Of a stretch of 64,000 nt of DNA, positions 10,304-41,725 are shown in pieces. Origin of the DNA: Nitrospiria bacterium (GTDB lineage: Bacteria; Nitrospirota; Nitrospiria; Nitrospirales; NS-4); assembly GCA_041490525.1 (NCBI GenBank), contig JBGPTH010000015.1, positions 3,867 to 67,866 on the forward strand. The letters are read 5' to 3'. A program made the position numbers and the translations under genes. The notes under the pieces were generated by a model that worked only from the letters and a program-made list of their open reading frames with translations, was not told the origin of the DNA and did no database searches. Numbering within the stretch: position 1 is the stretch's first letter; every line of letters begins with the position of its first letter.

Positions 10304-10387
10304 GCGGCAGAGTCACTATAGAGGCCAGCGGAGAATGAAGTCAAGGGTGGGTATGCTAGGATACGATTACGGAATGATGGCGAGGGA

Positions 10388-11188: not shown

Positions 11189-11313
11189 TCCCGATCGCGG
11201 GTCCTGTCGGCTTGGCATCCCGCCGTGCTCCGAGAAGCTGCGCGCGGCGGGAGCCCTGCACCCGCCGCCACCCCGCCGCCTTCGGCGACATCGGCGCCAC
11301 CCGCATGGAGGGA

Positions 11314-11739
11314 TCAACTCAACTGGACGGGGCCGCCGGCGCAGTCGCGGAATTCCCCGGAGTGGGAGGACTCCCCTAACTTCCAGAAGGTCGGCGTTAC
11401 CTCGAAGGGATGGCCCTTGCTGGTGAACAGCTTGGCCTTGTTGATCTGGACGTGGTCCTTGTCCAGGAACTTCACCTCCAGCACCACCTCTTCGTTCCCG
11501 CGCCGGATGACCTTGACCACCGAGGGCTCGGTGAGGACTTCGAATTCGCCGCGAATGTTCAACAGCAGGCTGCTCTCCGCGATCTTGGCCGCCAGTTCGC
11601 CCTTTGAATCGAAGAGGGTGCCCCTCAGCATCATCTCATTGTAGCGGCGGGTGAACTCGAACGAGAATTGTCCTAATCCGTCGATCTCGATGCTGTTCAT
11701 GGCGTTCCGATACTGATTGGAGCCGATGTCGAAGTCCAT
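11314..11739 (-). CDS. hypothetical protein (141 aa), third gene of an orphan operon
   Basis: Coding-like ORF that starts 3 nt after the stop of the 179-aa ORF. I recognise no motif. Confidence 0.55.
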   Translation of the reverse strand: MDFDIGSNQYRNAMNSIEIDGLGQFSFEFTRRYNEMMLRGTLFDSKGELAAKIAESSLLLNIRGEFEVLTEPSVVKVIRRGNEEVVLEVKFLDKDHVQINKAKLFTSKGHPFEVTPTFWKLGESSHSGEFRDCAGGPVQLS

Positions 11740-23687: not shown

Positions 23688-24578
23688 CTAATTCTTTCTG
23701 GCGGTGATGTAGCGGGCCAACTCGCGGAGGGGATCGGCCTTCGCGTCAAAATCTTTCAGCTGCTGGATCGCCGAGGCGACGCGCTCCTCGGCGAGCTTGC
23801 GGGCGCCCTCCACGCCGAAAAAGGAGGGATAGGTCTTTTTCCCCCGCGAGGCGTCGGTCCGCGCGTCCTTGCCGAGCTCCTCGCGCGTGCCTACGACGTT
23901 CAGCACGTCGTCCGCGATTTGAAAGGCCAGGCCGATGTCCTCCGCATAGCGGGTCAAGGCGTCAAGTTGCGCGGGGGTCGCGCCCCCCACCGTGGCGCCG
24001 ATGCGGACCGATGCCCGGATGAGCATGCCGGTCTTCCACCGGTGGGTGGATTCCAACGTGGCGAGGTCGATGTCCTTGCCCTCGGCCTCGATGTCGGCCA
24101 CCTGACCGCCCACCATGCCTTCGTCGCCGGAGCCGACGGCCAGCTCCCGGATGGCCCGGATCTGAGCGAACGGGTCGAGACCGTCCACCAATTCCGGCCG
24201 GCTGACCAGATCAAAGGCCATCGTGAGCAGGGCATCGCCAGCCAGGATTGCCATGGCTTCTCCGAAGACCTTATGGTTCGTCAGCTTGCCGCGCCGGTAA
24301 TCGTCGTTGTCCATGGCGGGGAGATCGTCGTGGATCAGCGAATACGTGTGAATGAGCTCCAGCGCGGACGCGAAGGGGAGGACGGGCGCGGGGGACCGCT
24401 CGACGGCCCCGCACGCGGCAATGGCCAGGATGGGCCGCACGCGTTTCCCGCCGGCGAAGAGGCTGTAGCGCATGGCCTTGTGAAGCGTCGTCGGCGGGGC
24501 GTCCTCGGCGGGCACGACCGAGTCGAGGAAGCGGTCAACCTCCTTCCGCTTGTGTTCCAGATACCTCGTGATGTCCAT
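23688..24578 (-). CDS. ispA: polyprenyl (farnesyl/geranylgeranyl) diphosphate synthase
   Basis: 296 aa with Asp-rich motifs LIHDDLPAMDNDDYRRGK and FQIADDVLN. Confidence 0.9.
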   Translation of the reverse strand: MDITRYLEHKRKEVDRFLDSVVPAEDAPPTTLHKAMRYSLFAGGKRVRPILAIAACGAVERSPAPVLPFASALELIHTYSLIHDDLPAMDNDDYRRGKLTNHKVFGEAMAILAGDALLTMAFDLVSRPELVDGLDPFAQIRAIRELAVGSGDEGMVGGQVADIEAEGKDIDLATLESTHRWKTGMLIRASVRIGATVGGATPAQLDALTRYAEDIGLAFQIADDVLNVVGTREELGKDARTDASRGKKTYPSFFGVEGARKLAEERVASAIQQLKDFDAKADPLRELARYITARKN

Positions 24579-24731
24579 CCGTAACCGAGCTTAGCAAAGC
24601 TACGCAAAGGGTGTCAACGCGAGGAGGTCACGGGATGGCCGCGAAATCCAGGTCGAAGGAGACTTCCCGCCGCCGAGGACCAGGCCCAGATCGCCGTGGG
24701 GAGAAGCCACGACAAGGGCCCCCTCACGGAG

Positions 24732-25466
24732 TCATCCTTTTTCTGGGTCGCGGTTCCGCTCGGAGGATAGCCCGCGGATCATCGTGCGGAACCCGAAAAA
24801 CCTCCAGCCGACCGCAACCAGGAGGATCCAGAACAGGTGGAGGCCCCCGGCAAAGGCCCAGACTAGTCTCTGCCAGGCCAAGTTTCCCTCGGAGCCCGTC
24901 ACCATCAGGTAGACCATGATGAAGATGTACAGCGGCTCGCGTGCGGTCAGGATGTTCATTGTGCGGAAGAGGACCCGCCGTTGGTGGGCCGGCAACGGAA
25001 TGGCCGCCCGAAGCGACTCCAGCCTCCACTCCACCAGGAAGCACAGGGGAAGCCCCGCCGCGATCGTCCATCCAGGGAAGGCCAGATGGCCCGGCGGGAG
25101 GTGCGCGGTGATCGACCAGGTCATCCCGGCCACCACCGCCAGGGCCACGAGCCCGTCGGAGAGATTGTCCAGGAAGTGCCCCAGGGACGACTCCGTCGCC
25201 GTGGCGCGGGCTAACTCTCCATCCGAATGGTCCAGGACGGCCGAGAAGCAGAACAGGGCGAGTCCCCACAAGCCGGAGAGGAGAGTCCCTTGGCCAAAGC
25301 ACCAACCGGCGGCCAGCCCGAAGGCGAGACTGAGGATCGTGACCTGCGTGGCGGTGAGGGGCGTGTGCAGAAAAGCTTGGGTGACCCAGTGCGAGAGAGG
25401 CCGGTGAAGGCGCCGGTCCATCCAGCTGTCGGGAGTCCGGGTTCCGGCGACGGCGTGTCTCATCAA
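24732..25466 (-). CDS. CDP-alcohol phosphatidyltransferase family protein
   Basis: 244-aa membrane protein. DHSDGELARATATESSLGHFLDNLSDGLV matches D(x)2DG(x)2AR...G(x)3D(x)3D. Confidence 0.8.
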   Translation of the reverse strand: MMRHAVAGTRTPDSWMDRRLHRPLSHWVTQAFLHTPLTATQVTILSLAFGLAAGWCFGQGTLLSGLWGLALFCFSAVLDHSDGELARATATESSLGHFLDNLSDGLVALAVVAGMTWSITAHLPPGHLAFPGWTIAAGLPLCFLVEWRLESLRAAIPLPAHQRRVLFRTMNILTAREPLYIFIMVYLMVTGSEGNLAWQRLVWAFAGGLHLFWILLVAVGWRFFGFRTMIRGLSSERNRDPEKG

Positions 25467-29131: not shown

Positions 29132-30802
29132 CTATTTCTTCAATTCCGCCCAGGCCTGCTGGTAGTCCTCGAAAGTGTCCACCTCCATCCACCCCTTGTA
29201 GATGGTGAGGCAGGAGACCGTGTGTCCCTGGTCTACCAGCTCCTGGAGCATGTCGGTGAGGGAGGCTTTGGCGAGGGAGGCGGCTTCATGGAAAGGACGG
29301 TCGGAAGTACCGGCCGCTTTCTTGTAAGCGGCCTTCAGAATGTCGGTTCCCCGCTCCGACAGCATGGCCAGGCCGATGAACTCGCCGTGCGCCTGGTCCG
29401 GGTCCAGGTGCTGGCCGATCTTGATGAGCCGGGCCGGGCCTTCCGGCGGGACGAACCGGTAGCGGGCTTCCGGGGGATGGTCCATGAGCACGAGGTCCGG
29501 CTTCGCGTGCGGACGCGGCAGTCCGTGCCGGTGGTGATCTGCCCAGGCCTGGTCCACCACGACCGTGATGTCGGCGGGGCTCTTGAGGAGCTTCAATAAG
29601 ATTCCGGTCTCGAAGATGATGTCGGCGTAGAGCAGCAGGCAGCGGCCCTTCAGCTCGTTCTCGGCGCAGAAGATCGAGGCCAGGTCCCCGGTCTCCTCAT
29701 AGCGGTCGTTGTCGTAGTAGCGAAGGTTGGGAAGCGCGATCTTGTCTTTCTGATATCCCCTGATGACGGCGATGTCCTTGATGTGGACCTCGTTCAGGGT
29801 TGTCACCTGACGTTCCAGGATCGTCCGGCCCTTGATGTCCAGCAGGCATTTGGGTTTGTCCTGGATGAGCGGCATCAGTTGTTTCTCAAACCCGGCCGCC
29901 GGAATGATGGCCGTGATTTTCTCGGCCCCCACCGGGAGGAACTTGCGTTCGTCCTCCTCCAGCTTGGTGACCCCGACCAGGTCATAGACCTCCTGGAGGG
30001 ACACCATCCGGTCCGCCACCGCCTCGGCGCGGGTTTCGCGCTTCAGCACGTCCAGGGTGTCGCGCATGGCCTTGATGGCTGTCCGAATGACCTGGTTGGC
30101 GAAGATGACGATCTTGAAGCCGTGTTGCTCGAGCTCCTCCGCCCTCACCGAGCTGAAGATGGTGGGGACGACGACCAGCGGGACCCGGCCGGACCACTGC
30201 CGGGCGACGGCGCGGAGCTCCTCGAACGTGGGCGCTTTCGAGTGGATCAGGACGGCGTCAGCGCCGGCGTCGGCATAGGCTTCGGCCCGCTTCAACGCCT
30301 CGTCCTGGCCCCAGCCCGCGATCAGCGCCTCGGTTCGGGCGATCACCACGAAGTCCGGAGAGGACTGCGCCGCCTTGGCCGCGCGGACCTTGCCGGCGTG
30401 CTCCTCGACGGACACCAGCTCGCGGCGGACTCCCGCGTAGAACGAGCACCGCTTGGGGAAGACGTTGTCCTCGATGCAGATGCCGGCGATGCCGGCCTTC
30501 TCATAGTCCTGGACCGTCCGCATGACGTTCAGGGCGTTCCCGAACCCGGTGTCGCAATCGGCGATGACCGGAAGGGCGACCGCCTCCACGATGTTCCGGG
30601 TCACGTCGAGCTGTTCCGTCATCGTGAGGAAGCTGCCGTCGGGGATGCACTTGAGCGAGGCCGAGATGCCGAACCCGGAGGCCCAGATCGCGTCGAACCC
30701 GGCCCGCTCGATGAGCTTCGCGCTGAGCGCGTCGTGAGCGCCGACCGTGCGGATGAGCCCCGGCCGGTTCATCAGCTCGCGAAGTCTTGTTGCGTGGCGC
30801 AT
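29132..30802 (-). CDS. PEP-mutase-family (ICL/PEPM superfamily) domain fused to a C-terminal nucleotidyltransferase-like domain
   Basis: 556 aa. The N-terminal ~290 aa carry ADCDTGFG, ARTEA and AGADAVLIHSK (PepM-like), with the active-site loop EDNVFPKRCS. The C-terminal ~255 aa are NTP-transferase-like (AIIPAAGFEKQL...DKPKCLL...YADIIF). Confidence 0.8.
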   Translation of the reverse strand: MRHATRLRELMNRPGLIRTVGAHDALSAKLIERAGFDAIWASGFGISASLKCIPDGSFLTMTEQLDVTRNIVEAVALPVIADCDTGFGNALNVMRTVQDYEKAGIAGICIEDNVFPKRCSFYAGVRRELVSVEEHAGKVRAAKAAQSSPDFVVIARTEALIAGWGQDEALKRAEAYADAGADAVLIHSKAPTFEELRAVARQWSGRVPLVVVPTIFSSVRAEELEQHGFKIVIFANQVIRTAIKAMRDTLDVLKRETRAEAVADRMVSLQEVYDLVGVTKLEEDERKFLPVGAEKITAIIPAAGFEKQLMPLIQDKPKCLLDIKGRTILERQVTTLNEVHIKDIAVIRGYQKDKIALPNLRYYDNDRYEETGDLASIFCAENELKGRCLLLYADIIFETGILLKLLKSPADITVVVDQAWADHHRHGLPRPHAKPDLVLMDHPPEARYRFVPPEGPARLIKIGQHLDPDQAHGEFIGLAMLSERGTDILKAAYKKAAGTSDRPFHEAASLAKASLTDMLQELVDQGHTVSCLTIYKGWMEVDTFEDYQQAWAELKK

Positions 30803-30900
30803 GAGTCCCTATGGTGCGAGAGCCGGGGCGAGAAAGTCAAATGGAAAGTGGAGGGTCGGTGGGTTGTATGAGCCGAGTGGGAATGGTATAAAGCCTGGCC

Positions 30901-31650
30901 ATGGCGGACAGGGCGGCTCTGGGCAAGGTTGCGGTGATCACCGGCGGGGCGAAGGGGATCGGCCGCGCCATCGGCGTGGACCTCGCTGCGAGCGGCTGGA
31001 ACGTGGCCTTCTGCTACAGGACCTCCGAGCGCGAGGCCGCCGAGACGGCGGCGTTCATCAAGAACCACGGGCGGCGCGTGCTGGCCGAGCGGTGCGATGT
31101 CTCGGATCCGGCCGCGGCTGAGGCCTTCGTCCGGAAGGTGGAAAAAGAATTCGGCGCGGTGGACGCCCTCATCAACTGCGCAGGCCCCTACCATCGGGTC
31201 AATGTCCTGGAGGAGACCCCCGCCGGGTGGACCGACATGTTCGCCCACAACCTGCACCCTGTCTTTTACATGAGCAAGGCCGTCTCGGCGGGCATGAAGG
31301 CGTGCAAGTGGGGGCGGATCGTGACCTTCTCGATGGCCAACGCCGACCAGATGGTGGCTCAACCCGAGGTGACCGCTCATTACATCGCCAAGGCGGGGGT
31401 CCTGATCCTGACCCGCACGCTGGCGAAGACGCTGGCCCCACACGGCATCACGGTCAATGCGATCTCCCCGGGCTTCATCAACTCGGGGAGCGCGCCGGAG
31501 GCGGAACTCGCCGCCATGGTGAAAAAAATTCCGGCGGGCTACGTCGGCGAGCCGCGCGATGCCGTGGCGGCGGTCCGGTTCCTCTTGTCCGACGAGGCGC
31601 GGTACGTGACCGGCACGAACATACACCTCAGCGGCGGGTGGGGGATCTGA
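30901..31650 (+). CDS. short-chain dehydrogenase/reductase (FabG-like)
   Basis: 249 aa with TGGAKGIG and YxxxK (HYIAKAG). Confidence 0.85.
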   Translation: MADRAALGKVAVITGGAKGIGRAIGVDLAASGWNVAFCYRTSEREAAETAAFIKNHGRRVLAERCDVSDPAAAEAFVRKVEKEFGAVDALINCAGPYHRVNVLEETPAGWTDMFAHNLHPVFYMSKAVSAGMKACKWGRIVTFSMANADQMVAQPEVTAHYIAKAGVLILTRTLAKTLAPHGITVNAISPGFINSGSAPEAELAAMVKKIPAGYVGEPRDAVAAVRFLLSDEARYVTGTNIHLSGGWGI

Positions 31651-33186
31651 ATGGCCCAGGATTTCGATCAGACGATTAAAGACGGCTATCGGTTTGAGGG
31701 CGCCGTGCTTGATGTGGGGCGTGCCCTCCGAGGCGGCAACGTGTTTCCCGACCTGCCGGTCAGGTTGCCGTTGGCCATGATGAACCGCCATGGGCTGATC
31801 GCGGGGGCGACGGGCACCGGAAAGACGAAGACCCTCCAACTGCTGGCCGGAGAACTGTCGGACGCCGGCGTGCCGGTGTTTCTCGCCGACCTGAAGGGGG
31901 ATCTCTCCGGCCTGGCCAAACCCGGCGTGCCCACCGAAAAGCTCCAGAGCCGTTGCAGAGATCTTAAGATCACGTTTTCTCCGAAGGCCCACCCGGTCGA
32001 GTTCCTCAGCCTGACCGGAAAGCAGGGCGCGCAAGTCCGCGCGACCGTGTCCTCATTCGGCCCGCTGCTGCTCGCGAAGGTGCTTGCCCTCAACGACACA
32101 CAGCAGGGGGTTCTCACACTCCTCTTCAAGTTCTGCGACGACCATCACCTGCCGATCCTGGACCTCCCGGATCTCAAGGCGGTCCTGGCCTATCTTCAGG
32201 GCCTCGACTCCCAGCAATTGGCCGGGTACGGGGGCATGGCGAAGGCCGCGCTGGGGGTCCTCAACCGCAAGCTCGTCGAGCTGGAGCAGCAGGGCGCCGA
32301 CCTCTTCCTCGGCGAACCGGAGTTCGACATCATGGACCTGTTGCGGACGACTCCGGACGGCAAGGGCATCGTCAGCCTTCTCTCACTGACCGATATCCAG
32401 GACCGGCCGGCCCTCTTCTCGACGTTCATGATGTGGCTGCTGGGAGAGCTCTTCCATCGGCTTCCCGAACGGGGGGATGTGGACAAGCCGGTGCTGGTGT
32501 TTTTCTTCGACGAGGCGCACCTCCTGTTCGAGGAGGCCTCGAAGGCCCTGGTCAATCAGATCGAGCAGGTAGTGAAGCTGATCCGCTCCAAGGGGGTCGG
32601 CGTCTACTTCGTGACCCAGACGCCGAAGGACATCCCAGCGGACGTGCTGGCCCAGCTCGGGAACCGCTTCCAGCACGCGCTGCGGGCCTTCACGCCGGAC
32701 GACGCCAAGGCCCTCAAGGCGACCGCCGGCACGTTTCCGAGGACGCCGTTCTACGAGATCGAGAAAGAACTCACGTCGCTTGGGATCGGAGAGGCGCTGG
32801 TCACGGTCCTCGACTCGCAGGGACGTCCCACGCCGGTGGTGGCGACGCGCCTCATTCCGCCGGACTCGTTCATGGGGGCGCTGGAGGAGAAGGACTTTCA
32901 GACCAAGGTCAAGGCCGGGACATTACAGGCCAAGTACGCGCAGGCCATCGATCGCGAGTCCGCGCGGGAAATCCTCCACAAGAAGATGGCCCTGCCGACG
33001 GAAGCCGGTGGAGCCGCTCGTGGTGAGGTTGAAGAGGGAGAGCCGATACCTCAACCGGCGGGGGGTCGACGTGGGAAGCCAGAGCCGTCGCTCGCGGAGG
33101 AGATTCTCAAATCCCCCCTCACCCGCCAGATCGGAAAGGAAGTGGTTCGCGGCCTGTTCGGGATGTTGAAAAAGAGTCTTCGGTAG
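31651..33186 (+). CDS. HerA/FtsK-like P-loop ATPase (DUF853/YjgR type)
   Basis: 511 aa with Walker A GATGTGKT and Walker-B-like VLVFFFDEAH. The start abuts the SDR stop. Confidence 0.78.
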   Translation: MAQDFDQTIKDGYRFEGAVLDVGRALRGGNVFPDLPVRLPLAMMNRHGLIAGATGTGKTKTLQLLAGELSDAGVPVFLADLKGDLSGLAKPGVPTEKLQSRCRDLKITFSPKAHPVEFLSLTGKQGAQVRATVSSFGPLLLAKVLALNDTQQGVLTLLFKFCDDHHLPILDLPDLKAVLAYLQGLDSQQLAGYGGMAKAALGVLNRKLVELEQQGADLFLGEPEFDIMDLLRTTPDGKGIVSLLSLTDIQDRPALFSTFMMWLLGELFHRLPERGDVDKPVLVFFFDEAHLLFEEASKALVNQIEQVVKLIRSKGVGVYFVTQTPKDIPADVLAQLGNRFQHALRAFTPDDAKALKATAGTFPRTPFYEIEKELTSLGIGEALVTVLDSQGRPTPVVATRLIPPDSFMGALEEKDFQTKVKAGTLQAKYAQAIDRESAREILHKKMALPTEAGGAARGEVEEGEPIPQPAGGRRGKPEPSLAEEILKSPLTRQIGKEVVRGLFGMLKKSLR

Positions 33187-33204
33187 ACGTCGCCCCCCTG
33201 CGTC

Positions 33205-33699
33205 TTACGGCATCAGGTAAAACCCAAGGGCCTCCTTCAGAAAAGGATCCGGAGACACGTATTCCACTCCCAGGATGAACCGGGCCTTCTCGGGAATGAT
33301 TTCGCGGATGGAACAAAGCGGGTCCAGCTTCGTCCGTTGAAGGTCGTCGAGAACCACCCGGATCGTAACCAATTGGCCTTCGACGAGATTCTTGGCGGAG
33401 GTCACGGCCAGTCGCATGCCTGTTTGGGAGATATCAAGGACCGTGCAGCTACGCTCAAATGTCCTGACGTCGGAGTCGACCGTCAGACTGCCCTGAAGAT
33501 TGACGCTCCTGCGATAGGTCCTCCGGAAATTCACCAAGACGCTGGAGGGCTTCCCACACGGACACTCGTAGATGAAGGGATTCGGCAAGTCCGGGGGAAG
33601 TTCGTCCACCCGGAATTCCCGTGATCGGGGGCAGTAGGGGCACGAGACGATGAAAGTGTTCGTATCGGAAACGTAGAGCTGTAAAACGTTATCTGCCAT
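33205..33699 (-). CDS. PilZ-domain protein with N-terminal zinc-ribbon
   Basis: 164 aa with CPYC...CPCG, then the c-di-GMP-binding motifs FRRTYRR (RxxxR) and DISQTGMR (D/NxSxxG). Confidence 0.75.
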   Translation of the reverse strand: MADNVLQLYVSDTNTFIVSCPYCPRSREFRVDELPPDLPNPFIYECPCGKPSSVLVNFRRTYRRSVNLQGSLTVDSDVRTFERSCTVLDISQTGMRLAVTSAKNLVEGQLVTIRVVLDDLQRTKLDPLCSIREIIPEKARFILGVEYVSPDPFLKEALGFYLMP

Positions 33700-34052
33700 G
33701 ATTCCTGACTTCGAGGCCCATGAGAGAGGACCGTGGGGTCTGGGCCTCCATTAGTCTAGTATGTCGGAATTTTCCGTCCGTTTCATAAATCAGGCACTTG
33801 CGTGGTCTCCGAGACCTCGCCCAAGTCTCTGTCGGAGAAGGACATCGGGGTCTCGGACATGCCTGATGTATGAGTGACTGACCTGATTCTCCCCATCGGC
33901 CCTCCCGTTGTCAAAGGGAATTTTGCTGAGTGGCAACCATTTCAGGACATTTACGGGCTTGTGCGAAACTATCACATTCTCGATCGGATGGGAGGCGCCT
34001 GTCTTTGGATCGGACGAGGGACGATCGGGCGGAAAAGGGGGTGGGAATCCGC

Positions 34053-34748
34053 TCAGTCGAGGACGGGGTTCAAGTTGAAGGCCACGCTGATGCGAGGGGC
34101 CGTGCCGTGGTAGGTGCTGACCGCGTGCGAGAGCCACCCGGGAAACAGCACGCACCGGCCGGTGACCGGGGTGATCGAGATGCTCTTGCCGGCGTCGTGC
34201 AGCTCGGGCATCGCGTACCGCAGATAGGGCGCGAGCATCGAGGGGAGGCATCCCCGGGGATCAAAGAGCTGCAAGTCCCCGCCGCACCCGCCCTGGGCGG
34301 GGATGTCGCCCGCATCCACATAGTACACACCCGACCAGAAGGAGCCGGGGTGGGGGTGGACGGCGTTGCTTCCCCCCTTCCGCTGCACGTTCGCCCAGGT
34401 CTCGATGACCTGCCAACGCGGCTTGGACCCGGTCAGATCGGGCGCCCGTTCGGAGAATTCCGTCGCTTGGGTCGCGACTTCCACGACGGGCGTTAACAGA
34501 TCTTTGACCACCGGAGCCCAGTCCAGCATGGACAGGTCGTGGGGGGAGGACCAGCCCACCACTTCGTGGTCGAGGACGGCCGGGGTCGTCACCTCCCGCT
34601 CGAGGATCGCGGCCCGGAGGTCTTTGTCGATCCGCGCGTGGTCGGGGATCATGAACACGAGCAGCGGAGTGGCGAAGAGCGGCCGGACGTTGATTTCCAT
34701 TTCCTGGGACATGGCTGGCAGGATATCGTCAGGGTCGGGAGGTGTCAA
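34053..34748 (-). CDS. putative 2OG-Fe(II)-oxygenase-like protein (TIGR02466/2OG-FeII_Oxy_5 type)
   Basis: 231 aa with NAVHPHPGSFWSGVYYV and GRCVLFPGWLSHAV...RISVAFN. The start could instead be the internal Met at 34712. Confidence 0.68.
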   Translation of the reverse strand: MTPPDPDDILPAMSQEMEINVRPLFATPLLVFMIPDHARIDKDLRAAILEREVTTPAVLDHEVVGWSSPHDLSMLDWAPVVKDLLTPVVEVATQATEFSERAPDLTGSKPRWQVIETWANVQRKGGSNAVHPHPGSFWSGVYYVDAGDIPAQGGCGGDLQLFDPRGCLPSMLAPYLRYAMPELHDAGKSISITPVTGRCVLFPGWLSHAVSTYHGTAPRISVAFNLNPVLD

Positions 34749-34765
34749 GGCGGGGGCGGGCGCTC

Positions 34766-34795
34766 TTGAGAAGCCCGCCCGCCTCCTTATATAAT
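34766..34795 (+). promoter_or_regulatory. sigma70-like promoter candidate for the phosphonate operon (TTGAGA-18-TATAAT)
   Basis: TTGAGA at 34766-34771 and TATAAT at 34790-34795, with only 9 nt between the -10 and ATG 34805. The -35 is bracketed by the inverted repeat GGGCGGGC (34754-34761) / GCCCGCCC (34773-34780). Confidence 0.4.
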
Positions 34796-34804
34796 GCGAT
34801 CCCT

Positions 34805-35293
34805 ATGTCGATTCCCGCCAAGGACTTCGTCGGCCTGTTGCAGGAAGCCGGGTTCGACTTCTTCACGGGCGTCCCGGATTCGATGCTGGGGGGCGTCATC
34901 GCCACGCTGATCGAGCGGCGGGTCTATGTCCCGGCGGCCCGGGAGGACGAGGCGGCGGGGATGGCCGCAGGGGCTTTTATGGGGGGGAAGACACCGGTCG
35001 TCCTGATGCAGAACTCCGGTCTCGGCACCTCCCTGAACACCCTGATCTCGCTGAACCTGATCTACCTCCAGCCGTGCCTGCTCCTGATCTCCTGGCGGGG
35101 CCAGGGCGGAAAAGACGCCGCGGAACATCTGGTCATGGGCCAGGTCATGCGGGAGTTGCTGGATCTGGTCCGCATTCCTCACCGGACGCTCGGGGTGGAA
35201 ACCCTCCGCGAGGACGTTGGGTGGGCGGCGCAGGTCTTCATGACGCGGCGCATTCCGGCGGCCTTGCTCATCACCAAGGGGGTCCTGGCGTGA
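34805..35293 (+). CDS. phosphonopyruvate-decarboxylase-type TPP enzyme, alpha (N-terminal PYR) subunit
   Basis: 162 aa from ATG 34805. FVGLLQEAGFDFFTGVPDSML...AAREDEAAGMAAGA...MQNSGLG is typical of the Ppd/ComD N-terminal domain. Confidence 0.8.
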   Translation: MSIPAKDFVGLLQEAGFDFFTGVPDSMLGGVIATLIERRVYVPAAREDEAAGMAAGAFMGGKTPVVLMQNSGLGTSLNTLISLNLIYLQPCLLLISWRGQGGKDAAEHLVMGQVMRELLDLVRIPHRTLGVETLREDVGWAAQVFMTRRIPAALLITKGVLA

Positions 35294-35883
35294 GGCCGGA
35301 AGAGGGAGTCCTGACCAGCCGCAGCCGGGCGATCGGGGCCGTCCTGGCCCTGCTGACCGACGAGCTGGTTATTGTCTGTAATGGATTTCCCTCACGTGAG
35401 GCCTACGCCCTGCGCGACCGGCCTGAGAATTTTTACATGATCGGCTCCATGGGGGTCGCGGCGGCGATCGGGTTGGGCCTGGCCCTGGCCCAGCCGCGCC
35501 GCAGGGTGGTGGTCTTCGACGGCGACGGCAACGTGTTGATGGGCCTGGGAACCCTGGCCACCGTCGGGGCCCTGAAGCCCAAGAATTTCGTTCACATCGT
35601 GTATGATAATGAGGTCTACGGTAGCACCGGGAACCAGCCGACGATCTCCCAGACCGTGCGCCTGGAGCAGATGGCCAAAGCCGCGGGGTATCGGAACGTG
35701 GAACGCGTGCGGGAACTGGACGATCTCGTGTATGAAGCCAAAACCATGCTGAAGGAGGATGGCCCCAGTTTCCTGCTGGTGAAGGTGTCTGAACTGGCAG
35801 AGGACGTGGGACGGGTGGAGATCGAGCCGGCGGCCATGACGACCCGATTCAGGGCGGCCGCCATGGGAGGGACGCCGACGTGA
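35290..35883 (+). CDS. phosphonopyruvate-decarboxylase-type TPP enzyme, beta (C-terminal PP) subunit
   Basis: 197 aa from GTG 35290 (GTGA overlap). GSMGVAAAIGLG...DGDGNVLMGLG...NEVYGSTGNQ is the TPP-binding motif region. Confidence 0.8.
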   Translation: MRPEEGVLTSRSRAIGAVLALLTDELVIVCNGFPSREAYALRDRPENFYMIGSMGVAAAIGLGLALAQPRRRVVVFDGDGNVLMGLGTLATVGALKPKNFVHIVYDNEVYGSTGNQPTISQTVRLEQMAKAAGYRNVERVRELDDLVYEAKTMLKEDGPSFLLVKVSELAEDVGRVEIEPAAMTTRFRAAAMGGTPT

Positions 35884-37148
35884 TCTTATTGAATCCGGGT
35901 CCGGTCAACGTATCCGAGCGCGTGCGCCAGGCCCTGCTCCGGCCGGACATCTGCCACCGCGAATCCGAGTTCGTCGAGCTGATCCAGAGCATCCGCGAAA
36001 AGCTGGTCCGAGCGTTCGCTCCGGGCGGGGAGTATCTCGCTCTCGTCCTGACGGGATCGGGAACGGCGGCGGTGGAAGCCGCGGTGACCTCGTCCCTGGC
36101 GCCTGGGCGCCGGTTGCTGGTCGTCAAGAACGGGGTCTATTCCCAACGGATCGTGGAGATGGCCGGCGCGCACAAAATCCATACGGCGGAGATTCCCGGC
36201 GAGTGGGACCAGCGCTTTGATGTCGAACAAGTGGCGGTCTCGCTGCGGCAGAACCAATCGATCCAGGTCGTGGCGGCGGTCCACCATGAGACCTCCACCG
36301 GCATGATCAACTCGATCAAAGAGATCGGGGCGGTCGTCAAGAAGGCCGGGCGCGTGCTCCTGGTGGACGGCGTGAGCAGCCTCGCCGGCGAGGACCTCGA
36401 CTTCACTGCCTGCAACGTGGGATTGATGGTCGGCTCGTCGGGCAAGTGCATCCAGGGATTCCCCGGAGTCGGGTTCGTGCTGGTCCGCCGCGATCTCATG
36501 GAACAGATGGCGAACTACACGCAGCGCTCCGTCTACCTGCATCTTCCCACCTATTACAAGGAGCAGGAAGAGGGCTCGATCCCGTTCACCCCCGCGGTCC
36601 AGCTCTACTATGCCTTCGATGAGGCCCTGAGCGAGCTGTTGGAAGAGGGGGTGGCCAACCGGATCGCGCGGTACCGGAAGATGGCCCGGACGATCCGGAA
36701 CTGGATGCGGACCATCCGGATGAAGTTCTACCTCCGCGAACCGTTCCTGTCGAGCACGCTCACGGCGTTGAGGCTCCCCGAGGGGGTGTATTACGATCAC
36801 CTGCACGACCTCCTGCGCGAGCGGGGCTACGTCGTATACGCCGGCCAATCCAATCTGGCGGCAAGCATTTTCCGCGTAGCCAACATGGGCGCCCTGACTG
36901 AGGCCGACATCAATGGATTCCTGACCGCCTTCGAAGAAATCCTGCCGGAAGCCCAGAAGCTCGGTGCCGAACGGGCCGGGGAAATGGAACAACTGCAGCG
37001 CGAGCGTAAGGATAAGGAGGAACTGGAGAAGGCCGAGGCGAAGGCGGCGGAAGAGGCGGCGAAGGCCGAGGAAGAGGCCAGGAAAGCGGAAGCGGAGGCG
37101 AAGACGGCCGAGGCCGCGGCCAAGCTCGAGGTCAAGACCGGCACTTGA
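35880..37148 (+). CDS. class-V aminotransferase, 2-aminoethylphosphonate:pyruvate transaminase-like, with a charged Ala/Glu/Lys tail
   Basis: 422 aa, GTG start overlapping the upstream stop (GTGA). The N-terminus reads LLNPGPVNVSERV...HRESEF...LTGSGTAAVEA. The last ~55 aa are EAK-rich low complexity. Confidence 0.82.
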   Translation: MILLNPGPVNVSERVRQALLRPDICHRESEFVELIQSIREKLVRAFAPGGEYLALVLTGSGTAAVEAAVTSSLAPGRRLLVVKNGVYSQRIVEMAGAHKIHTAEIPGEWDQRFDVEQVAVSLRQNQSIQVVAAVHHETSTGMINSIKEIGAVVKKAGRVLLVDGVSSLAGEDLDFTACNVGLMVGSSGKCIQGFPGVGFVLVRRDLMEQMANYTQRSVYLHLPTYYKEQEEGSIPFTPAVQLYYAFDEALSELLEEGVANRIARYRKMARTIRNWMRTIRMKFYLREPFLSSTLTALRLPEGVYYDHLHDLLRERGYVVYAGQSNLAASIFRVANMGALTEADINGFLTAFEEILPEAQKLGAERAGEMEQLQRERKDKEELEKAEAKAAEEAAKAEEEARKAEAEAKTAEAAAKLEVKTGT

Positions 37149-37188
37149 CCATGGCCGGGCGTCTGCTGTCGCCACGGGCGGCGTCATC

Positions 37189-37911
37189 ATGAAGGCGATC
37201 ATCCTGGCAGCGGGGGTCGGCAAGCGGCTTGCCGCGGTGACCCGAGAGCGTCCCAAGTGCCTGGTCGAATTGGGCGGGCAGCCCCTCCTGATCCGCTATC
37301 TCAACGCGTTGCTGGAGGCCGGGGTCAAGCGCGCCGCGGTGGTGGTGGGCCACAAGCAGGAGATGATCCGGAGGACGGTCGGCGAGAGCTACCGTGGCCT
37401 GGCCGTCCAGTACGTGGTCAACGACCAGTACCGGAGAGGGAGCCTCTATTCGCTCTGGCTGGCGCGGGTCGCCTTCGACGATGATGTGCTCATCATGGAT
37501 GCCGACGTCCTGTGCCCGTCCTCCTTCGTGGCGCGCCTGATCCACTCGCCGCACCCGAATGCCCTGTTGATCGACGAGACCGTCCGCCAGCAGATGGAGG
37601 AACGCATGGCCATAATTGACGGAGACCGGGTGGTGGCGCTGACCAAGAAGATTCCTCAGGAGACGCCCGACCTTATGGGCGAGGGGGTGGGATTCCTCAA
37701 GGTCACCAGGGCGGATACCCGGTTCATGCTGGCCGTGATGGAACCCTACGTGACGAGGGGCGAGCTGGACATGGAATATGAGGATACGTGGGAGAGTTTC
37801 TTCCGTACGGTCTCCGTGGGCTATGAAAAGGTCGGAGGCCAGCCCTGGATTGAGATCGACTTTCCGGAGGACCTCGAGCGCGCCAAGCGGGAGATCGTTC
37901 CGAAATTGTGA
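37189..37911 (+). CDS. LicC/PntC-like cytidylyltransferase (nucleotidyltransferase)
   Basis: 240 aa from ATG 37189, with MKAIILAAGVGKRL...RPKCLVELGG. The track ORF 36964.. over-extends. Confidence 0.8.
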   Translation: MKAIILAAGVGKRLAAVTRERPKCLVELGGQPLLIRYLNALLEAGVKRAAVVVGHKQEMIRRTVGESYRGLAVQYVVNDQYRRGSLYSLWLARVAFDDDVLIMDADVLCPSSFVARLIHSPHPNALLIDETVRQQMEERMAIIDGDRVVALTKKIPQETPDLMGEGVGFLKVTRADTRFMLAVMEPYVTRGELDMEYEDTWESFFRTVSVGYEKVGGQPWIEIDFPEDLERAKREIVPKL

Positions 37912-37926
37912 AGATCCCCTCACCCT

Positions 37927-37951
37927 ACCCCTCTCCCCGGAGGGAAGAGGG
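37927..37951. repeat. intergenic GC-rich hairpin (REP-like)
   Basis: CCCCTCT-CCC cgga GGG-a-AGAGGGG lies between the cytidylyltransferase stop and the next start. Confidence 0.45.
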
Positions 37952-37974
37952 GAAAGAAGAGCCAGCGAGGAGGA

Positions 37975-38961
37975 ATGATGAGCATCCGCATGGACCAGAT
38001 CCAGCCGATCATTGACCGGGAGTACGACTATCTCGTGTCCGAACATCCGCACTGGAGCCTGACCAAGGGCGACCAGGACCTGGAGCTGGTGGCGCACGCG
38101 CTGCGGGTCCTGCTTCACATGAAGACCACTCCGCAGCATCTGGCCGAGTATCTCGCCCTGGTGGACTGCCAGCATGCGGATGGGGGCTGGGGCAAACTGT
38201 CGTCCGACAAGCAGAGCGCCGCGTGGGTGACGGCCTTCTGCGCGCTGATGCTCATTCGCGGGAATCTCCTGCTGAAACACCCCCGGATCGCCGAATCGGT
38301 CCGGAAGTGCGTCCGCTATTTTCTGGCGACCCAGAAGGAAGACGGGAAGTGGTCCGATTCCTCCTGGGCGGACCTGGACGCCGTCAGCCATCCCATGAGC
38401 TTCTTCGATGTGCTGCTGGCCGTGGGCAAGCACCTGGTCGATGAGGCGACGCTGGGAGAGGTCAGGGCGGCGTGGCGGAAGGGCATGCGGTTCATGCTCG
38501 ACCGGCAAGCGGCCGATGGGGGCTGGTACGATCCGGAGTTCCACCCGACCGGCGTGGAGATCACGGCGCACCTGATCCAGGACTCCATCGTGCCCGACCT
38601 GGTGCTGGAGAATGAGTTCAATGTGCGGGACTGCTGCCAGGGAGGGGTGAGGAGGCTGCTTGCGGTCCAGGCGGCCGACGGCTCCTGGGACGGTGAGAAC
38701 GTCGATCACACCATGGATTGCAGCCGGTCCCTCATGCTGGTCAGCAGCATCCTGGGGACGCGGTCGCAGTGCGATCCGGCAATCGAGCGCGGGCTTGCGT
38801 GGATTCTGAAACATAAGTGCGAACGGGGCTGGCCGGATTTTCCGGGGATGGACCCGAACCTCGAACGGACCTGCGACGGCCTCGATACGCTGCTCAAATA
38901 CAAGGCGTACAGCCAGCCGGTGACGACCGCCATCGTCAAGCTCTGGGGATACGCCCTGTGA
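37975..38961 (+). CDS. prenyltransferase / squalene-cyclase-repeat (alpha/alpha toroid) protein
   Basis: 328 aa with four Q-x2-DG(G/S)W-type repeats: QHADGGWGK, TQKEDGKWSD, RQAADGGWYD and VQAADGSWDG. Confidence 0.7.
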   Translation: MMSIRMDQIQPIIDREYDYLVSEHPHWSLTKGDQDLELVAHALRVLLHMKTTPQHLAEYLALVDCQHADGGWGKLSSDKQSAAWVTAFCALMLIRGNLLLKHPRIAESVRKCVRYFLATQKEDGKWSDSSWADLDAVSHPMSFFDVLLAVGKHLVDEATLGEVRAAWRKGMRFMLDRQAADGGWYDPEFHPTGVEITAHLIQDSIVPDLVLENEFNVRDCCQGGVRRLLAVQAADGSWDGENVDHTMDCSRSLMLVSSILGTRSQCDPAIERGLAWILKHKCERGWPDFPGMDPNLERTCDGLDTLLKYKAYSQPVTTAIVKLWGYAL

Positions 38962-39278
38962 CGTTCCTGGCCAAGGTCGCCGAGATTCCGGCCGGCGACC
39001 GCAAGCTCATCAAGGTGAACGGCGTCGACGTCGCGGTGTTTCACGTCGGGGACCGGTTCTATGCCCTCAATAACACCTGCCCTCACCGCCAGGGCCCGCT
39101 GATTCGGGGCACCCTCGAAGACTCGGCAGGGGGCGCGGGCTGCGCGATCCGCTGCCCGATGCACGGATGGAAGTTTGATCTTGAGACCGGCGACAGCCAC
39201 GGCCGTTCCGGTAACGCGACGGTGTATCCCGTCACGCAACGGGACGGGGAACTCTTCATCGAGATCGGCGGGGTCTGA
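38958..39278 (+). CDS. small Rieske [2Fe-2S] ferredoxin (NirD-type)
   Basis: 106 aa from GTG 38958 (GTGA overlap), with CPHRQGPL...CPMHGWKF. Confidence 0.8.
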   Translation: MTFLAKVAEIPAGDRKLIKVNGVDVAVFHVGDRFYALNNTCPHRQGPLIRGTLEDSAGGAGCAIRCPMHGWKFDLETGDSHGRSGNATVYPVTQRDGELFIEIGGV

Positions 39279-39284
39279 TCACCC

Positions 39285-40727
39285 ATGGACGCCTCACCCA
39301 TCGACAGCGCTTTGGTCCTGACCACGGGAGGGATCTTCGATCCGACGGGGGCCCCTTCTCCACCGAGCCCCCTGACGGTCGTGGGCGGCCTCTCTCTCCT
39401 GCAGCGGACCATCATGACCCTGCAGCGGGCGGGCATCACGCGGCTCGTGATGCTGGGAGGCGACAAGACGGAGGCGATGCAGCGCCAGCTTCAGGGAGAT
39501 CGCCGGATCCAGATTGAGGTGGGGTGGCTCCCGATCCGCGAATTCCCCCTGAGCGACCCGCGGACCTGGGAAGGCCTCTCCGGCATGCTCGGCTCGTCCT
39601 ACCTCGTGGCGGGAACCAGGGCCGTTTTTTCCCCCGACCTGGTCATCCGCTTGCGTGAAGAGGGCAGGAAGGGGGATCCGGTCTTGGTCGTACGGAACGC
39701 GGACTCCGGCAGAACGAGGCGAGACTCCCTTTCCCCGGGCCGGCAGGATCTGCCGTCCCACTCCGGGGTGCCCATGGCTCCTCAAGGCGTCAAGGGCCAT
39801 GGGAGAGGGGAGAGCGAAGGGGCCGGCGGTGTGGTCACCCTGGAGCCCGCCGTGGCCTCCAGCCTGTTTGTTGACCTCGTGTCGATACCGGAAGGGTTCA
39901 CCTCCCCGGGTTGGGTCAATCCCCAAGACTCCCCTCACCCGCTGCGGACGGCCCTCGAACGCGGGCTCCGTTCGGGACAGGTGAAGGTCTTGCCGCTGGA
40001 GGCGGATTGGTACCAGGAGGTGCGGACGGGGGCGCCTGAAGAGGTGGCGTCGGCGGAATGGACCTTGCTTCGGTCCCTCAAAGGCGGTCTCGAAGGCTTC
40101 GTGGACCGCCATTTCAACCGCAAGTGTTCGAAGTGGATCACGCAGTGGCTGGTGGGGACTCCCTTGACCCCGAACGGCGTGACCATTCTGGCCACCGCGG
40201 TGGGTCTCCTGGCCGCCACCGCCTTCGGGCTCGGCGGATACGCGGAGGGGATCATTGGGGCCCTTCTGTTTCAGCTCTCCGCCATTCTGGATTGCTGTGA
40301 CGGCGAGGTAGCCCGGCTCAAATTCCTGGAATCGTCCATGGGGGAGCAATTGGACGTCGTACTGGATAACGTGGTCCACGTCGCCCTCTACGCTGGGATC
40401 GCGTGGGCCTCGTACCGGGACAATTGGGGCCCGGTGGCCCTGCTCTTCGGGTGGCTGGCGATGCTCGGCAATCTCTTTGCGTTCGTCGTGGTCCAGAAAG
40501 CAACCAGGATGCGGGGGGCGCTGGATCCGGACCGCCGGCGCTATGTGGAGTCGATCCTCAACACCCTGGTCAGCCGCGACTTCTCGGTGCTCATCCTGGT
40601 CTTAGCTCTCGTCAATCATGTCGAATGGTTTCTTCCGCTCGCGGCCATCGGCTCGAATGTCTTCTGGCCCCTGCTGGCCTGGCAGCTCCGGACGGAAAAG
40701 CGATCCGCCAGCCCTCCCATAACATGA
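39285..40727 (+). CDS. nucleotidyltransferase-like domain fused to a CDP-alcohol phosphatidyltransferase membrane domain
   Basis: 480 aa. The N-terminal NT-like fold has a degenerate Gly loop (LVLTTGGIFDPTG). A low-complexity linker follows. The C-terminal part carries DCCDGEVARLKFLESSMGEQLDVVLDNVVH plus TM helices. Confidence 0.7.
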   Translation: MDASPIDSALVLTTGGIFDPTGAPSPPSPLTVVGGLSLLQRTIMTLQRAGITRLVMLGGDKTEAMQRQLQGDRRIQIEVGWLPIREFPLSDPRTWEGLSGMLGSSYLVAGTRAVFSPDLVIRLREEGRKGDPVLVVRNADSGRTRRDSLSPGRQDLPSHSGVPMAPQGVKGHGRGESEGAGGVVTLEPAVASSLFVDLVSIPEGFTSPGWVNPQDSPHPLRTALERGLRSGQVKVLPLEADWYQEVRTGAPEEVASAEWTLLRSLKGGLEGFVDRHFNRKCSKWITQWLVGTPLTPNGVTILATAVGLLAATAFGLGGYAEGIIGALLFQLSAILDCCDGEVARLKFLESSMGEQLDVVLDNVVHVALYAGIAWASYRDNWGPVALLFGWLAMLGNLFAFVVVQKATRMRGALDPDRRRYVESILNTLVSRDFSVLILVLALVNHVEWFLPLAAIGSNVFWPLLAWQLRTEKRSASPPIT

Positions 40728-41725
40728 CCCGACTGACGGGCCTCCTTTTCGCGCTCGGGGTGGCGGTCCTTGTGGGCCTCGTGGTTCACATCGGTCCGGG
40801 CACGCTGGCGGCGGAACTCCACAAGCTGGGCCTGAATTTTCTCTGGATCATGCTCCCCTCGTTGGGCGTCTATCTGCTGGACGCCCTGGGCTGGCGCTAT
40901 ACGCTGGACCGGCACGCGGAACGGGTCCCGTTCGGCCGTCTCTTCATGACCCGCATGGCCGGCGAAGCCGTCAACTTCACCACCCCGGCGGCGTACTTGG
41001 GGGGCGAACCGGTGAAGGCCTACATGCTGAGCCGGTACAACGTCCCCTTGGTGGACGGCCTGGCCTCGGTGATCACGGCAAAGACGACGATGATCCTCGC
41101 CGAGGTCCTGTTCATCCTGGTCGGGGTGGGGCTCAGCGCGACGCTCCTGAGCCGGTCGGGCGATGTGCTGATGGCCGGCCTGGTCGGCTTCGGGGTGTTG
41201 GGGTTCGGGATCGGTCTATTCGTCTTCGTCCAGCGACAAGGGTTGTTCGGGGGAGTGCTCCGCTTACTCGAGCGCCTCGGAATCAGGATCGCGTGGCTGA
41301 AGGAACGGGAGTCCACGCTCCAGGTGCTGGATGAGGCGATCGGGGATTTCTATAAGCGGGACCATCGCCGGTTTTTTCTCTCCTTCCTGGCGTTCTTCGG
41401 GGGATGGGTGGTGGGAACCTTCGAAGTGTACCTGACGTTGTATTTCCTGGAGTTGCCGGTGGATGTGCTGACCGCCGTCGCGATCGAGGCCCTCGCCGTG
41501 TTCATCAAGGGGGCCACGGCGTTCATTCCCGGGAGCGTCGGCGGCCAGGAGGCGGGGATCGTCTTGCTGTGCGCGGCCTTCGGATTTCCCCAGGCGGGCG
41601 CCGTGACGTTCGCCCTGGTGCGGCGGGTCCGGGAGATCATCTGGGTCGCGTTCGGCTTGCTTGCCCTGACCGCGCAGAGTCCCGCTTCTTTCCCCGACGA
41701 TGCGCCGGGCCGCCCGCTGGAGTGA
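40724..41725 (+). CDS. flippase-like / lysyl-PG-synthase-TM-region (UPF0104, HpnL-like) membrane protein
   Basis: 333 aa from ATG 40724 (ATGA overlap), polytopic, with LDALGWRYTL...RMAGEAVNFTTPAAYLGGEPVKAY. Confidence 0.68.
   Translation: MTRLTGLLFALGVAVLVGLVVHIGPGTLAAELHKLGLNFLWIMLPSLGVYLLDALGWRYTLDRHAERVPFGRLFMTRMAGEAVNFTTPAAYLGGEPVKAYMLSRYNVPLVDGLASVITAKTTMILAEVLFILVGVGLSATLLSRSGDVLMAGLVGFGVLGFGIGLFVFVQRQGLFGGVLRLLERLGIRIAWLKERESTLQVLDEAIGDFYKRDHRRFFLSFLAFFGGWVVGTFEVYLTLYFLELPVDVLTAVAIEALAVFIKGATAFIPGSVGGQEAGIVLLCAAFGFPQAGAVTFALVRRVREIIWVAFGLLALTAQSPASFPDDAPGRPLE

Follow-up and report, generated by a model that had tools for sequence, protein, structure and literature searches.

Phosphoenolpyruvate (PEP) mutase (PepM, also called Ppm or AepX) serves as marker for almost every biological route that forms a carbon-phosphorus (C-P) bond, and the gating-loop signature EDKX5NS is used to separate it from the rest of its superfamily. 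Estimates of phosphonate producers from genomes and metagenomes depend on this gene, in most cases with EDKX5NS as a filter. Can a protein that lacks this signature nevertheless be a PEP mutase? The question is raised by a gene in the 64,000-nucleotide stretch of Nitrospiria contig JBGPTH010000015.1 analyzed here ('the window'), which encodes a PEP-mutase domain fused to a cytidylyltransferase and whose gating loop reads EDNVFPKRCS, so that the protein fails EDKX5NS at two positions (K116->N and N122->C in the numbering of the Mytilus edulis enzyme).

A preliminary description of this DNA had offered two explanations: a divergent PepM clade missed by motif-based surveys, or an enzyme that catalyzes a different reaction feeding a phosphonopyruvate decarboxylase (Ppd). 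The first is supported below, in that the loop marks a conserved lineage and three surveys (2019, PMC6697681; 2022, PMC8942020; 2025, PMC12723261) keep only perfect matches to EDKX5NS; Rice et al. removed 22 fused sequences without the motif. Full-text literature searches found neither the motif string nor a description of this loop type, and the databases name these proteins 'isocitrate lyase/PEP mutase family protein' (NCBI) or phosphoenolpyruvate phosphomutase (JGI).

The gene probably encodes a functional PEP mutase fused to a cytidylyltransferase, with an alternative gating-loop design, which would feed a pathway to 2-aminoethylphosphonate (AEP) phosphonolipids. The fold, the remaining catalytic residues, the clade-wide conservation of the loop and the synteny are all established here, and the variant is most likely a previously unrecognised, phylogenetically broad PepM lineage.

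Results

A PEP-mutase domain with a hybrid gating loop

Minus-strand translation of the loop segment (Table 1) agrees with EDNVFPKRCS, and the strings ADCDTGFG, ARTEA and AGADAVLIHSK, previously noted as PepM-like, are all present in the same open reading frame (ORF). Pfam assigns residues 7-250 of the 556-residue ORF to PF13714 (PEP_mutase, 1.1e-59) and also detects PF12804 (1e-9). An AlphaFold2 (AF2) model of the protein (pLDDT 89.4) matches 5UNC, the Streptomyces platensis PepM structure, with TM scores of 0.94-0.96 in Foldseek, PepM fitting best, followed by the hydrolase and then the lyases; the profile and structural matches identify the isocitrate lyase (ICL)/PEP-mutase alpha/beta-barrel fold with a swapped C-terminal helix. 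When all PDB sequences were searched with phmmer, 5UNC ranked first (4.6e-84), followed by phosphonopyruvate hydrolase 2DUA (1.1e-68) and Mytilus PepM 1M1B (1.1e-64), with lyases at 1e-42 or weaker; the variant loop is found in none of the solved or characterized PepMs in the PDB.

In these alignments EDNVFPKRCS lies without gaps on EDKRFPKVNS (5UNC), EDKTFPKDTS (2DUA) and EDKLFPKTNS (1M1B), corresponding in Mytilus numbering to E114, D115, K116->N, K120, T121->R, N122->C and S123. The loop register is correct, because three independent PDB alignments cross it without a gap; mis-registration is thereby rejected, and no EDKX5NS occurs elsewhere in the protein. The same columns read EDQVGAKRCG in Escherichia coli PrpB and EDQVWPKKCG in the petal death protein, in keeping with the lyase motif K-[KR]-C-G-H of the preliminary description. 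Because these proteins carry KRCG or KKCG in the same columns, the portrayal of the loop as a hybrid is accurate: FPK and the trailing Ser are as in PepM, K-R-C and the amide after E-D as in the lyases.

Lyase membership, which combines K-[KR]-C-G-H, with its catalytic Cys, and Glu at the position of His190, does not extend to this protein: K-R-C is there, but S-F follows it, residue 190 is His, and the lyase model TIGR02317 scores 212 bits (cut-off 354). The phosphonopyruvate hydrolase model TIGR02321 likewise scores below its cut-off (260.2 versus 374.4 bits), the loop differs from that of the hydrolase and the context is biosynthetic. Assignment as a hydrolase (PalA) was rejected on loop, tree and context.

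Conservation of the active site

An alignment of 226 domain sequences combined the window and related loci with representatives at 50% identity and PDB references, PrpB and the petal death protein serving as outgroups. Among its 56 sequences with the loop type EDN...CS (N..CS), D58, D85, E114, D115, K120, S123, R159 and E161 (Mytilus numbering) are each 100% conserved, and S46 (91%), G47 (82%), D87 (96%) and H190 (98%) strongly so; D58, D85, D87, E114, R159 and H190 correspond to D55, D82, D84, E111, R156 and H187 of the window protein. In H190, E161 and S123 the variant agrees with PepM and the hydrolase; lyase-like sequences have Glu, Asp and Gly at these positions. The retention of these three residues argues that the phosphoryl-binding pocket is intact and that the protein is not a lyase.

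Distribution of the variant loop

A PepM-domain search of ~5.8 billion proteins gave 4100 matches at E<=1e-30, and the best 120 clusters of these (54-89% identity) were checked for the loop. The pattern EDN/S-x-[FY]-P-K-x-[C/S]-S was present in 119 of the 120, the sole exception being a sequence in which the loop pattern matched nothing. Named sources of these clusters are Nitrospirales, Binatia, Tectomicrobia, Planctomycetota, Rokubacteria, Acidobacteria and Omnitrophica, and one cluster is fungal (Aspergillus violaceofuscus). A single mutation or sequencing error is rejected, the loop being conserved clade-wide.

Genomic neighborhoods were taken from a scan with one genome per species, which contains at least 80 related loci; the 80 fetched comprise 34 N..CS, 36 canonical (K..NS), six hydrolase-like (K..TS/K..SS), two N..NS, one S..CS and one Y..CS. 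The variant lineage extends over ~8 phylum-level groups, namely Nitrospirota (nitrite oxidisers), Binatia, Myxococcota, Acidobacteriota, Planctomycetota, Methylomirabilota, Omnitrophota and Thermodesulfobacteriota, and one of its loci comes from a complete genome, that of Sorangium cellulosum So ce56 (L021, gene at 10001-11653). The nearest relative of the window gene (90%) lies in L001, from an uncultured Nitrospirales metagenome-assembled genome. A plasmid collection held canonical AepX fusions only, at 35-39% identity.

The fungal homolog (L083, 10001-10981; A. violaceofuscus KZ825156.1) is an intronless, stand-alone EDNIFPKRCS gene, ~60% identical to the bacterial enzymes, among genes for a Zn-cluster regulator, a major facilitator superfamily transporter and an alcohol dehydrogenase; it looks like a horizontal transfer into a fungal metabolite cluster. 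Further PepM-like loops also fail EDKX5NS: EDNxFPKRNS (16 sequences), EDQxFPKxNS, EDNxxPKxHS and EDSxFPKRCS (examples are P0133, P0139, P0157, P0164, P0165 and P0207, and loci L038, L050 and L086 7004-8915). Another group, with EDQxxPKRC[GA] loops (P0209, P0215, P0227, P0229, P0239, P0247, P0260), does not have His190. Its sequences suggest an uncharacterised, lyase-like group that is nearest to the PepM superclade; for P0209, the one member searched, the best PDB match is PepM 5UNC (1e-50), ahead of the petal death protein.

Covariation within the gating loop

Most positions that discriminate between N..CS and canonical sequences are part of the gating loop or adjoin it; the full set is F44, N113, R118, C119, Y122 and R127 of the window protein (Mytilus L48, K116, T121, N122, H125 and Q130), together with Y273. 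Among PepM-like sequences, taken as those with Ser at the S123 position, Asn113 is accompanied by Arg or Lys at 118 (70/78), Tyr at 122 (69/78) and Arg or Lys at 127 (70/78), states that are far rarer with Lys113 (23/126, 2/126 and 1/126, respectively). Cys at the position of Mytilus Asn122 never occurs together with Lys113. The Asn113 design does occur with Asn there (EDNxFPKRNS, 16 sequences) and, in a few sequences, with Ser (EDNxFPKRSS) or His. The covariation and this Cys/Ser/Asn variation therefore point to two loop architectures: a canonical one with Lys116, a variable residue at 121, Asn122, an aliphatic residue at 125 and Gln130, and a variant one with Asn113, Arg118, Cys119, Tyr122 and Arg127, in which position 122 (Mytilus) may be Cys, Ser or Asn.

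Genomic context

A fusion to the nucleotidyltransferase (NTP-transferase) domain is found in 33 of the 34 variant genes of the fetched loci; stand-alone variants without that domain are represented by P0042 and P0066. Ppd is encoded in 26/34 variant loci as compared with 28/36 canonical ones (Fisher p=1.0) and 0/6 of hydrolase type (p=0.0008). A PhnW-like transaminase is present in 17/34 variant loci, a CDP-alcohol (CDP-OH) transferase homolog in 19/34, and an LPG_synthase_TM gene in many; the CDP-OH transferase also occurs in the Burkholderia loci with the canonical loop (L076-78), whose gene order is the same.

The form of the decarboxylase follows the loop type. Split, two-subunit Ppd occurs in 23/26 variant loci and 3/26 canonical loci (Fisher p=3e-8), and canonical PepM is accompanied by single-chain Ppd in 23/26 loci; it therefore appears that PepM and Ppd were passed on jointly and form a lineage apart. 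In the window, the Ppd-type decarboxylase that had been described as downstream of the fusion gene is indeed present, but it is not transcriptionally downstream: it is encoded on the other strand (34742-35883, +), ~4 kb from the fusion gene, with four genes in between, the last of them for an oxygenase (34053-34748, -).

Evolutionary position

Neighbor-joining (NJ) trees with 200 bootstraps recover a PepM-like superclade without the EDQ..KRCG sequences (support 0.97) and a separate hydrolase (KTS) clade (0.99). The backbone is weakly supported, and the N..CS core group has support of <=0.07; its monophyly is not claimed. Because the NJ backbone does not resolve, the variant is described as a conserved lineage or grade, not as a clean clade.

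In a tree rooted on PrpB and built after removal of loop columns 109-130, the first-branching ingroup lineages carry Asn113 (N..CS or N..NS) in 92/100 bootstraps, and canonical sequences are nested; the sampling is centered on an N..CS query and NJ is prone to long-branch artefacts. The Kimura distance to PrpB, computed with the loop excluded, is 1.52 for the variant clade and 1.75 for canonical sequences, and blastp scores follow the same direction (120 versus 95 bits to PrpB, 126 versus 98 bits to the petal death protein). By these measures, which do not depend on a tree, no other PepM group resembles the lyases as closely as the variant clade. This would fit an ancestral lyase-like loop from which EDKX5NS was derived, a scenario that we regard as tentative and rather doubtful.

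Other functions considered for the loop and the pathway

It is unlikely, although this is the best of the competing explanations, that Cys119 is used chemically, either to protonate C3, the general-acid role it has in the lyases, or as a transient phosphoryl acceptor. Mutase turnover might then include a covalent step or one coupled to a proton, or the enzyme might hydrolyze PEP or phosphonopyruvate, or act as an oxaloacetate-type lyase, and so regulate flux into Ppd. K-R-C, the amide at 113 and Arg or Lys at 127 are exactly the lyase states; the similarity of the variant clade to the lyases points the same way, as does the constancy of the Cys, which is invariant in all 56 N..CS sequences (as the class is so defined) and kept, bar a few Ser, in the 119 of 120 nearest clusters. 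The general base of the lyases (Glu at H190) and the G-H after Cys are missing, however, and the phosphoryl-binding His and Arg are present. A hydrolase would moreover serve no purpose in a cluster where nothing else forms C-P bonds (tblastn found no second PepM homolog, canonical included, in the window), and the hydrolase-type clade is separate and never linked to Ppd.

The relatives in which Cys is replaced bear most directly on this point, as Ser and Asn occur in nested or sister sequences that keep phosphonopyruvate-consuming neighbors. P0042 (EDNVFPKRSS) is nested in the variant clade in the NJ tree, and its gene is followed by a single-chain Ppd and an NTP transferase; the gene for P0133 (EDNxFPKRNS) is preceded by one for a VlpB-like 2-hydroxyacid dehydrogenase, a type recognised as an alternative consumer of phosphonopyruvate. 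One EDN..NS gene adjoins genes for a VlpB-like 2-hydroxyacid dehydrogenase, a glycosyltransferase and a phosphodiesterase. Replacement of Cys by Ser or Asn beside phosphonopyruvate-using enzymes argues for a hydrogen-bonding role and not for thiol chemistry, and the contexts of these loop types are as expected if every one of them makes phosphonopyruvate. The second explanation of the preliminary description, a different reaction feeding Ppd, is disfavoured because the synteny is identical to that of canonical PepM clusters and because Cys, Ser and Asn interchange in Ppd-linked relatives.

Far less probable is a substrate shift of the whole pathway, in which the PepM homolog would produce or process a non-phosphonate analogue and the decarboxylase would be of ComDE type, acting on sulfopyruvate. 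The split two-subunit architecture (23/26 variant loci) is ComDE-like, and the beta subunit scores slightly higher with the sulfopyruvate model than with the Ppd model in the window (190.4 versus 182 bits) and in L002 (196 versus 184). Both nevertheless fall below the sulfopyruvate cut-off of 221.5 bits, and the window decarboxylase misses the ComDE cut-offs of TIGR03845 and TIGR03846 alike (106.5/190.4 against 147.95/221.5 bits). The Ppd model outscores the sulfopyruvate model in the other variant clades (L021, L025, L032) and in the canonical split Ppd of L037, and the window Ppd halves score comparably to canonical split Ppd, for which reasons the window decarboxylase is read as Ppd. The transaminase is PhnW/AepZ-like (346 bits), the second transferase is nearest to the AEP-specific PntC 6PD1, R159 and H190 are retained, and we know of no sulfopyruvate-making route with this fold in coenzyme M biosynthesis. 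The sulfopyruvate/ComDE assignment was rejected, as scores are ambiguous in Nitrospira sequences only and never reach the cut-off.

It is scarcely credible that the PepM domain lacks catalytic activity, or that its role is purely regulatory or structural, with the fusion acting through its nucleotidyltransferase domain alone: two residues of the diagnostic signature are altered and the score is under the equivalog cut-off, but the metal- and phosphoryl-binding residues and the variant loop are strictly conserved over ~8 phyla at 54-90% identity, and stand-alone versions exist.

Other genes of the window cluster

The remaining genes of the cluster are listed in Table 1. The GTG start of the Ppd beta gene overlaps the stop of the alpha gene by four bases. 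The transaminase carries a Lys/Glu/Ala-rich low-complexity C-terminal tail of ~65 residues (window 36940-37148, +; …EKAEAKAAEEAAKAEEEARKAEAEAKTAEAAAKLEVKTGT), outside the region matched by the PhnW/AepZ model. The second cytidylyltransferase has as its best PDB match 6PD1, the AEP-specific PntC-AEPT (AEP transaminase) fusion of Rice et al. 2019.

Table 1. Coordinates of the fusion gene, its domains and associated genes in the window.
Feature	Position	Strand	Evidence
PepM-cytidylyltransferase fusion gene	29132..30802	-	556-aa ORF
PEP-mutase domain, N-terminal, residues 1-295	29918-30802	-	PF13714
MobA/LicC-like nucleotidyltransferase domain, C-terminal, residues ~296-556	29132-29917	-	PF12804
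Gating-loop segment EDNVFPKRCS, residues 111-120	30443..30472	-	Translation and alignment
TIGR02466-family 2-oxoglutarate (2OG)-Fe(II) oxygenase, candidate AEP hydroxylase	34053..34748	-	PF13759, TIGR02466
Ppd alpha, N-terminal thiamine diphosphate (ThDP) domain, split form	34742..35293	+	PF02776; TIGR03297 117.7, TIGR03845 106.5 bits
Ppd beta, C-terminal ThDP domain	35290..35883	+	PF02775; TIGR03297 182, TIGR03846 190 bits, both below cut-off
AEP transaminase, PhnW/AepZ-like	35880..37148	+	TIGR03301 346.2 bits (cut-off 360.8); PF00266
Second, stand-alone PntC-like cytidylyltransferase	37189..37911	+	PF12804, PF00483; best PDB match 6PD1, 4.2e-16
Squalene-cyclase/prenyltransferase-like (SHC-like) alpha/alpha-toroid repeat protein, 328 aa	37975..38961	+	Pfam
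CDP-alcohol phosphatidyltransferase, presumed CMP-AEP:lipid phosphonotransferase	39285..40727	+	PF01066
Membrane protein with LPG_synthase_TM (flippase-like) domain	40724..41725	+	PF03706 1.9e-36; synteny
Polyprenyl diphosphate synthase	23688-24578	-	
Second, short CDP-alcohol phosphatidyltransferase	24732-25466	-	

The SHC-like protein is apparently linked to the variant PepM type. Its homologs, 56-59% identical, directly follow the variant fusion gene in three Binatia genomes (L012, 11672-12649; L013, 11731-12696; L014, 11744-12688), where the two form an isolated pair among unrelated genes (TldD/PmbA, exonuclease, AcrB). The TIGR02466-family oxygenase gene diverges from that for Ppd alpha, their annotated starts overlapping by seven bases, and a tblastn search of the 80 related loci found no homolog at E<=1e-8. 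The protein may hydroxylate AEP in this lineage specifically; that it belongs to the phosphonate cluster we only infer.

Genes for a FabG-like short-chain dehydrogenase/reductase (SDR), a HerA-like ATPase (PF05872) and a PilZ-domain protein (window 30901-33699) separate pepM from the other genes of the cluster. The SDR gene is divergent from pepM and is kept, at 84% identity, beside the 90%-identical pepM of L001 (7625-8347). In other Nitrospira loci only ~1-2 kb separate pepM from Ppd. Further upstream in the window, the polyprenyl diphosphate synthase and the short CDP-alcohol phosphatidyltransferase (23688-25466) may be tied to lipid head-group chemistry.

Discussion

Taken as a functional PEP mutase, the fusion enzyme would convert PEP to phosphonopyruvate, which the split Ppd would turn into phosphonoacetaldehyde and the PhnW-like transaminase into AEP; a PntC-type transferase would then form CMP-AEP, from which the CDP-alcohol phosphatidyltransferase would pass the phosphonyl group to a lipid alcohol, the LPG_synthase_TM protein handling the product in the membrane. 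Within the loop, the positive charge given by Lys116 in the canonical design would come from Arg118, and Cys119, or in some sequences Ser or Asn at that position, would replace Asn122 as hydrogen-bond donor to the migrating phosphoryl group. Dissociative phosphoryl transfer would be unchanged, with the phosphoryl held by Arg156 (Arg159) and His187 (His190).

Several observations weigh against this assignment. The window protein scores 283.6 bits with the PEP mutase equivalog TIGR02320, below its cut-off of 319.55, as do five other variant-lineage sequences (four N..CS and one N..SS, 264-295 bits; the nearest canonical sequences score 307-409). In eight of the 34 variant loci, two of them truncated contigs, the fetched locus lacks Ppd, and no Ppd lies within 10 kb of the Aspergillus homolog. 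The absence of a canonical PepM covers the window alone. A thiol is a poorer hydrogen-bond donor. Literature searches found no published enzyme assay of this clade, and the literature treats Asn122 as part of the phosphoryl-binding set (PMC7916636). The same review names Asn122 and Ser123 among the residues that stabilise the phosphoryl group, though only as a hypothesis, and doubts that Asn122Thr alone accounts for the difference between mutase and hydrolase.

The variant enzyme shares with canonical PEP mutase (EC 5.4.2.9; M. edulis 1M1B/1PYM, S. platensis 5UNC) the same fold (TM 0.93-0.96, 38-50% identity), common Mg2+ ligands, and R159, H190, K120 and S123; the AepX-PntC fusions of Burkholderia have the same C-terminal NTP-transferase fusion (~550 aa), and canonical clusters the same neighborhood of Ppd, AEPT, PntC and CDP-OH transferase. 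It differs in the loop (EDNxFPKRCS-FY...R versus EDKxFPKxNS-F[ILV]...Q), in Phe in place of L48, in its usually split Ppd and in scoring under the TIGR02320 cut-off. Phosphonopyruvate hydrolase (PalA/PPH, Variovorax 2DUA) has the same fold and phosphoryl-binding residues and also replaces Asn122, with Thr; unlike the variant, it keeps Lys116, has Asp-Thr at 121-122, forms its own clade (0.99) and is never fused to a transferase or found beside Ppd (0/6). The lyase branch (PrpB, petal death protein, oxaloacetate acetylhydrolase) resembles the variant in K-[KR]-C, in the amide (Gln or Asn) after E-D and in the basic residue at 127, but the variant has Ser and not Gly-His after Cys, FP before Lys, His and not Glu at 190, and Glu and not Asp at 161, with only ~33% identity.

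The closest described system is the Burkholderiales_CDP-OH/Group 1 phosphonolipid family (Yu et al. 2013, as cited in Li & Horsman 2022, PMC8942020), which comprises a Ppm-PntC fusion, Ppd, AEPT, a second PntC, an alpha-ketoglutarate (alpha-KG) oxygenase and two phospholipid genes, and is described as abundant. Every component of this gene set is matched at family level in window 29132-41725, and the product lipid is putative in both. In contrast to the Burkholderia clusters, the window has a Ppm of the variant type and a loosened arrangement, with pepM 4 kb off on the other strand; its oxygenase is of the TIGR02466 family, with no tblastn match (E<=1e-8) there, and it has the additional SHC-like protein.

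A more speculative reading of the trees is that the EDN..CS enzymes are a living transitional state between C-C lyases and C-P mutases, with the canonical loop arising later (N..CS to N..NS to K..NS). They would have retained the lyase loop (the amide, K-R-C and basic 127) and acquired the phosphoryl pocket (His190 and Ser123). We consider this possible but doubtful; if it were true and the Cys still moved a proton or phosphoryl group, mixed mutase/hydrolase or covalent chemistry might be expected, which would bear on the long-debated PepM mechanism.

The lineage fails the EDKX5NS filter yet sits in ordinary AEP/phosphonolipid clusters, and phosphonate producers are therefore probably under-counted; under-counting is probable in soils, sediments and engineered nitrifying systems, and the EDN...NS and EDQ...NS types are lost to surveys likewise. 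A systematic blind spot in phosphonate genome mining is thus exposed. The variant also constitutes a natural experiment on Asn122 and Lys116, loop residues that have been held to be diagnostic, and it is carried by a cultured organism, S. cellulosum So ce56. For the evolution of the superfamily, it may illustrate the route from a lyase loop to a mutase loop.

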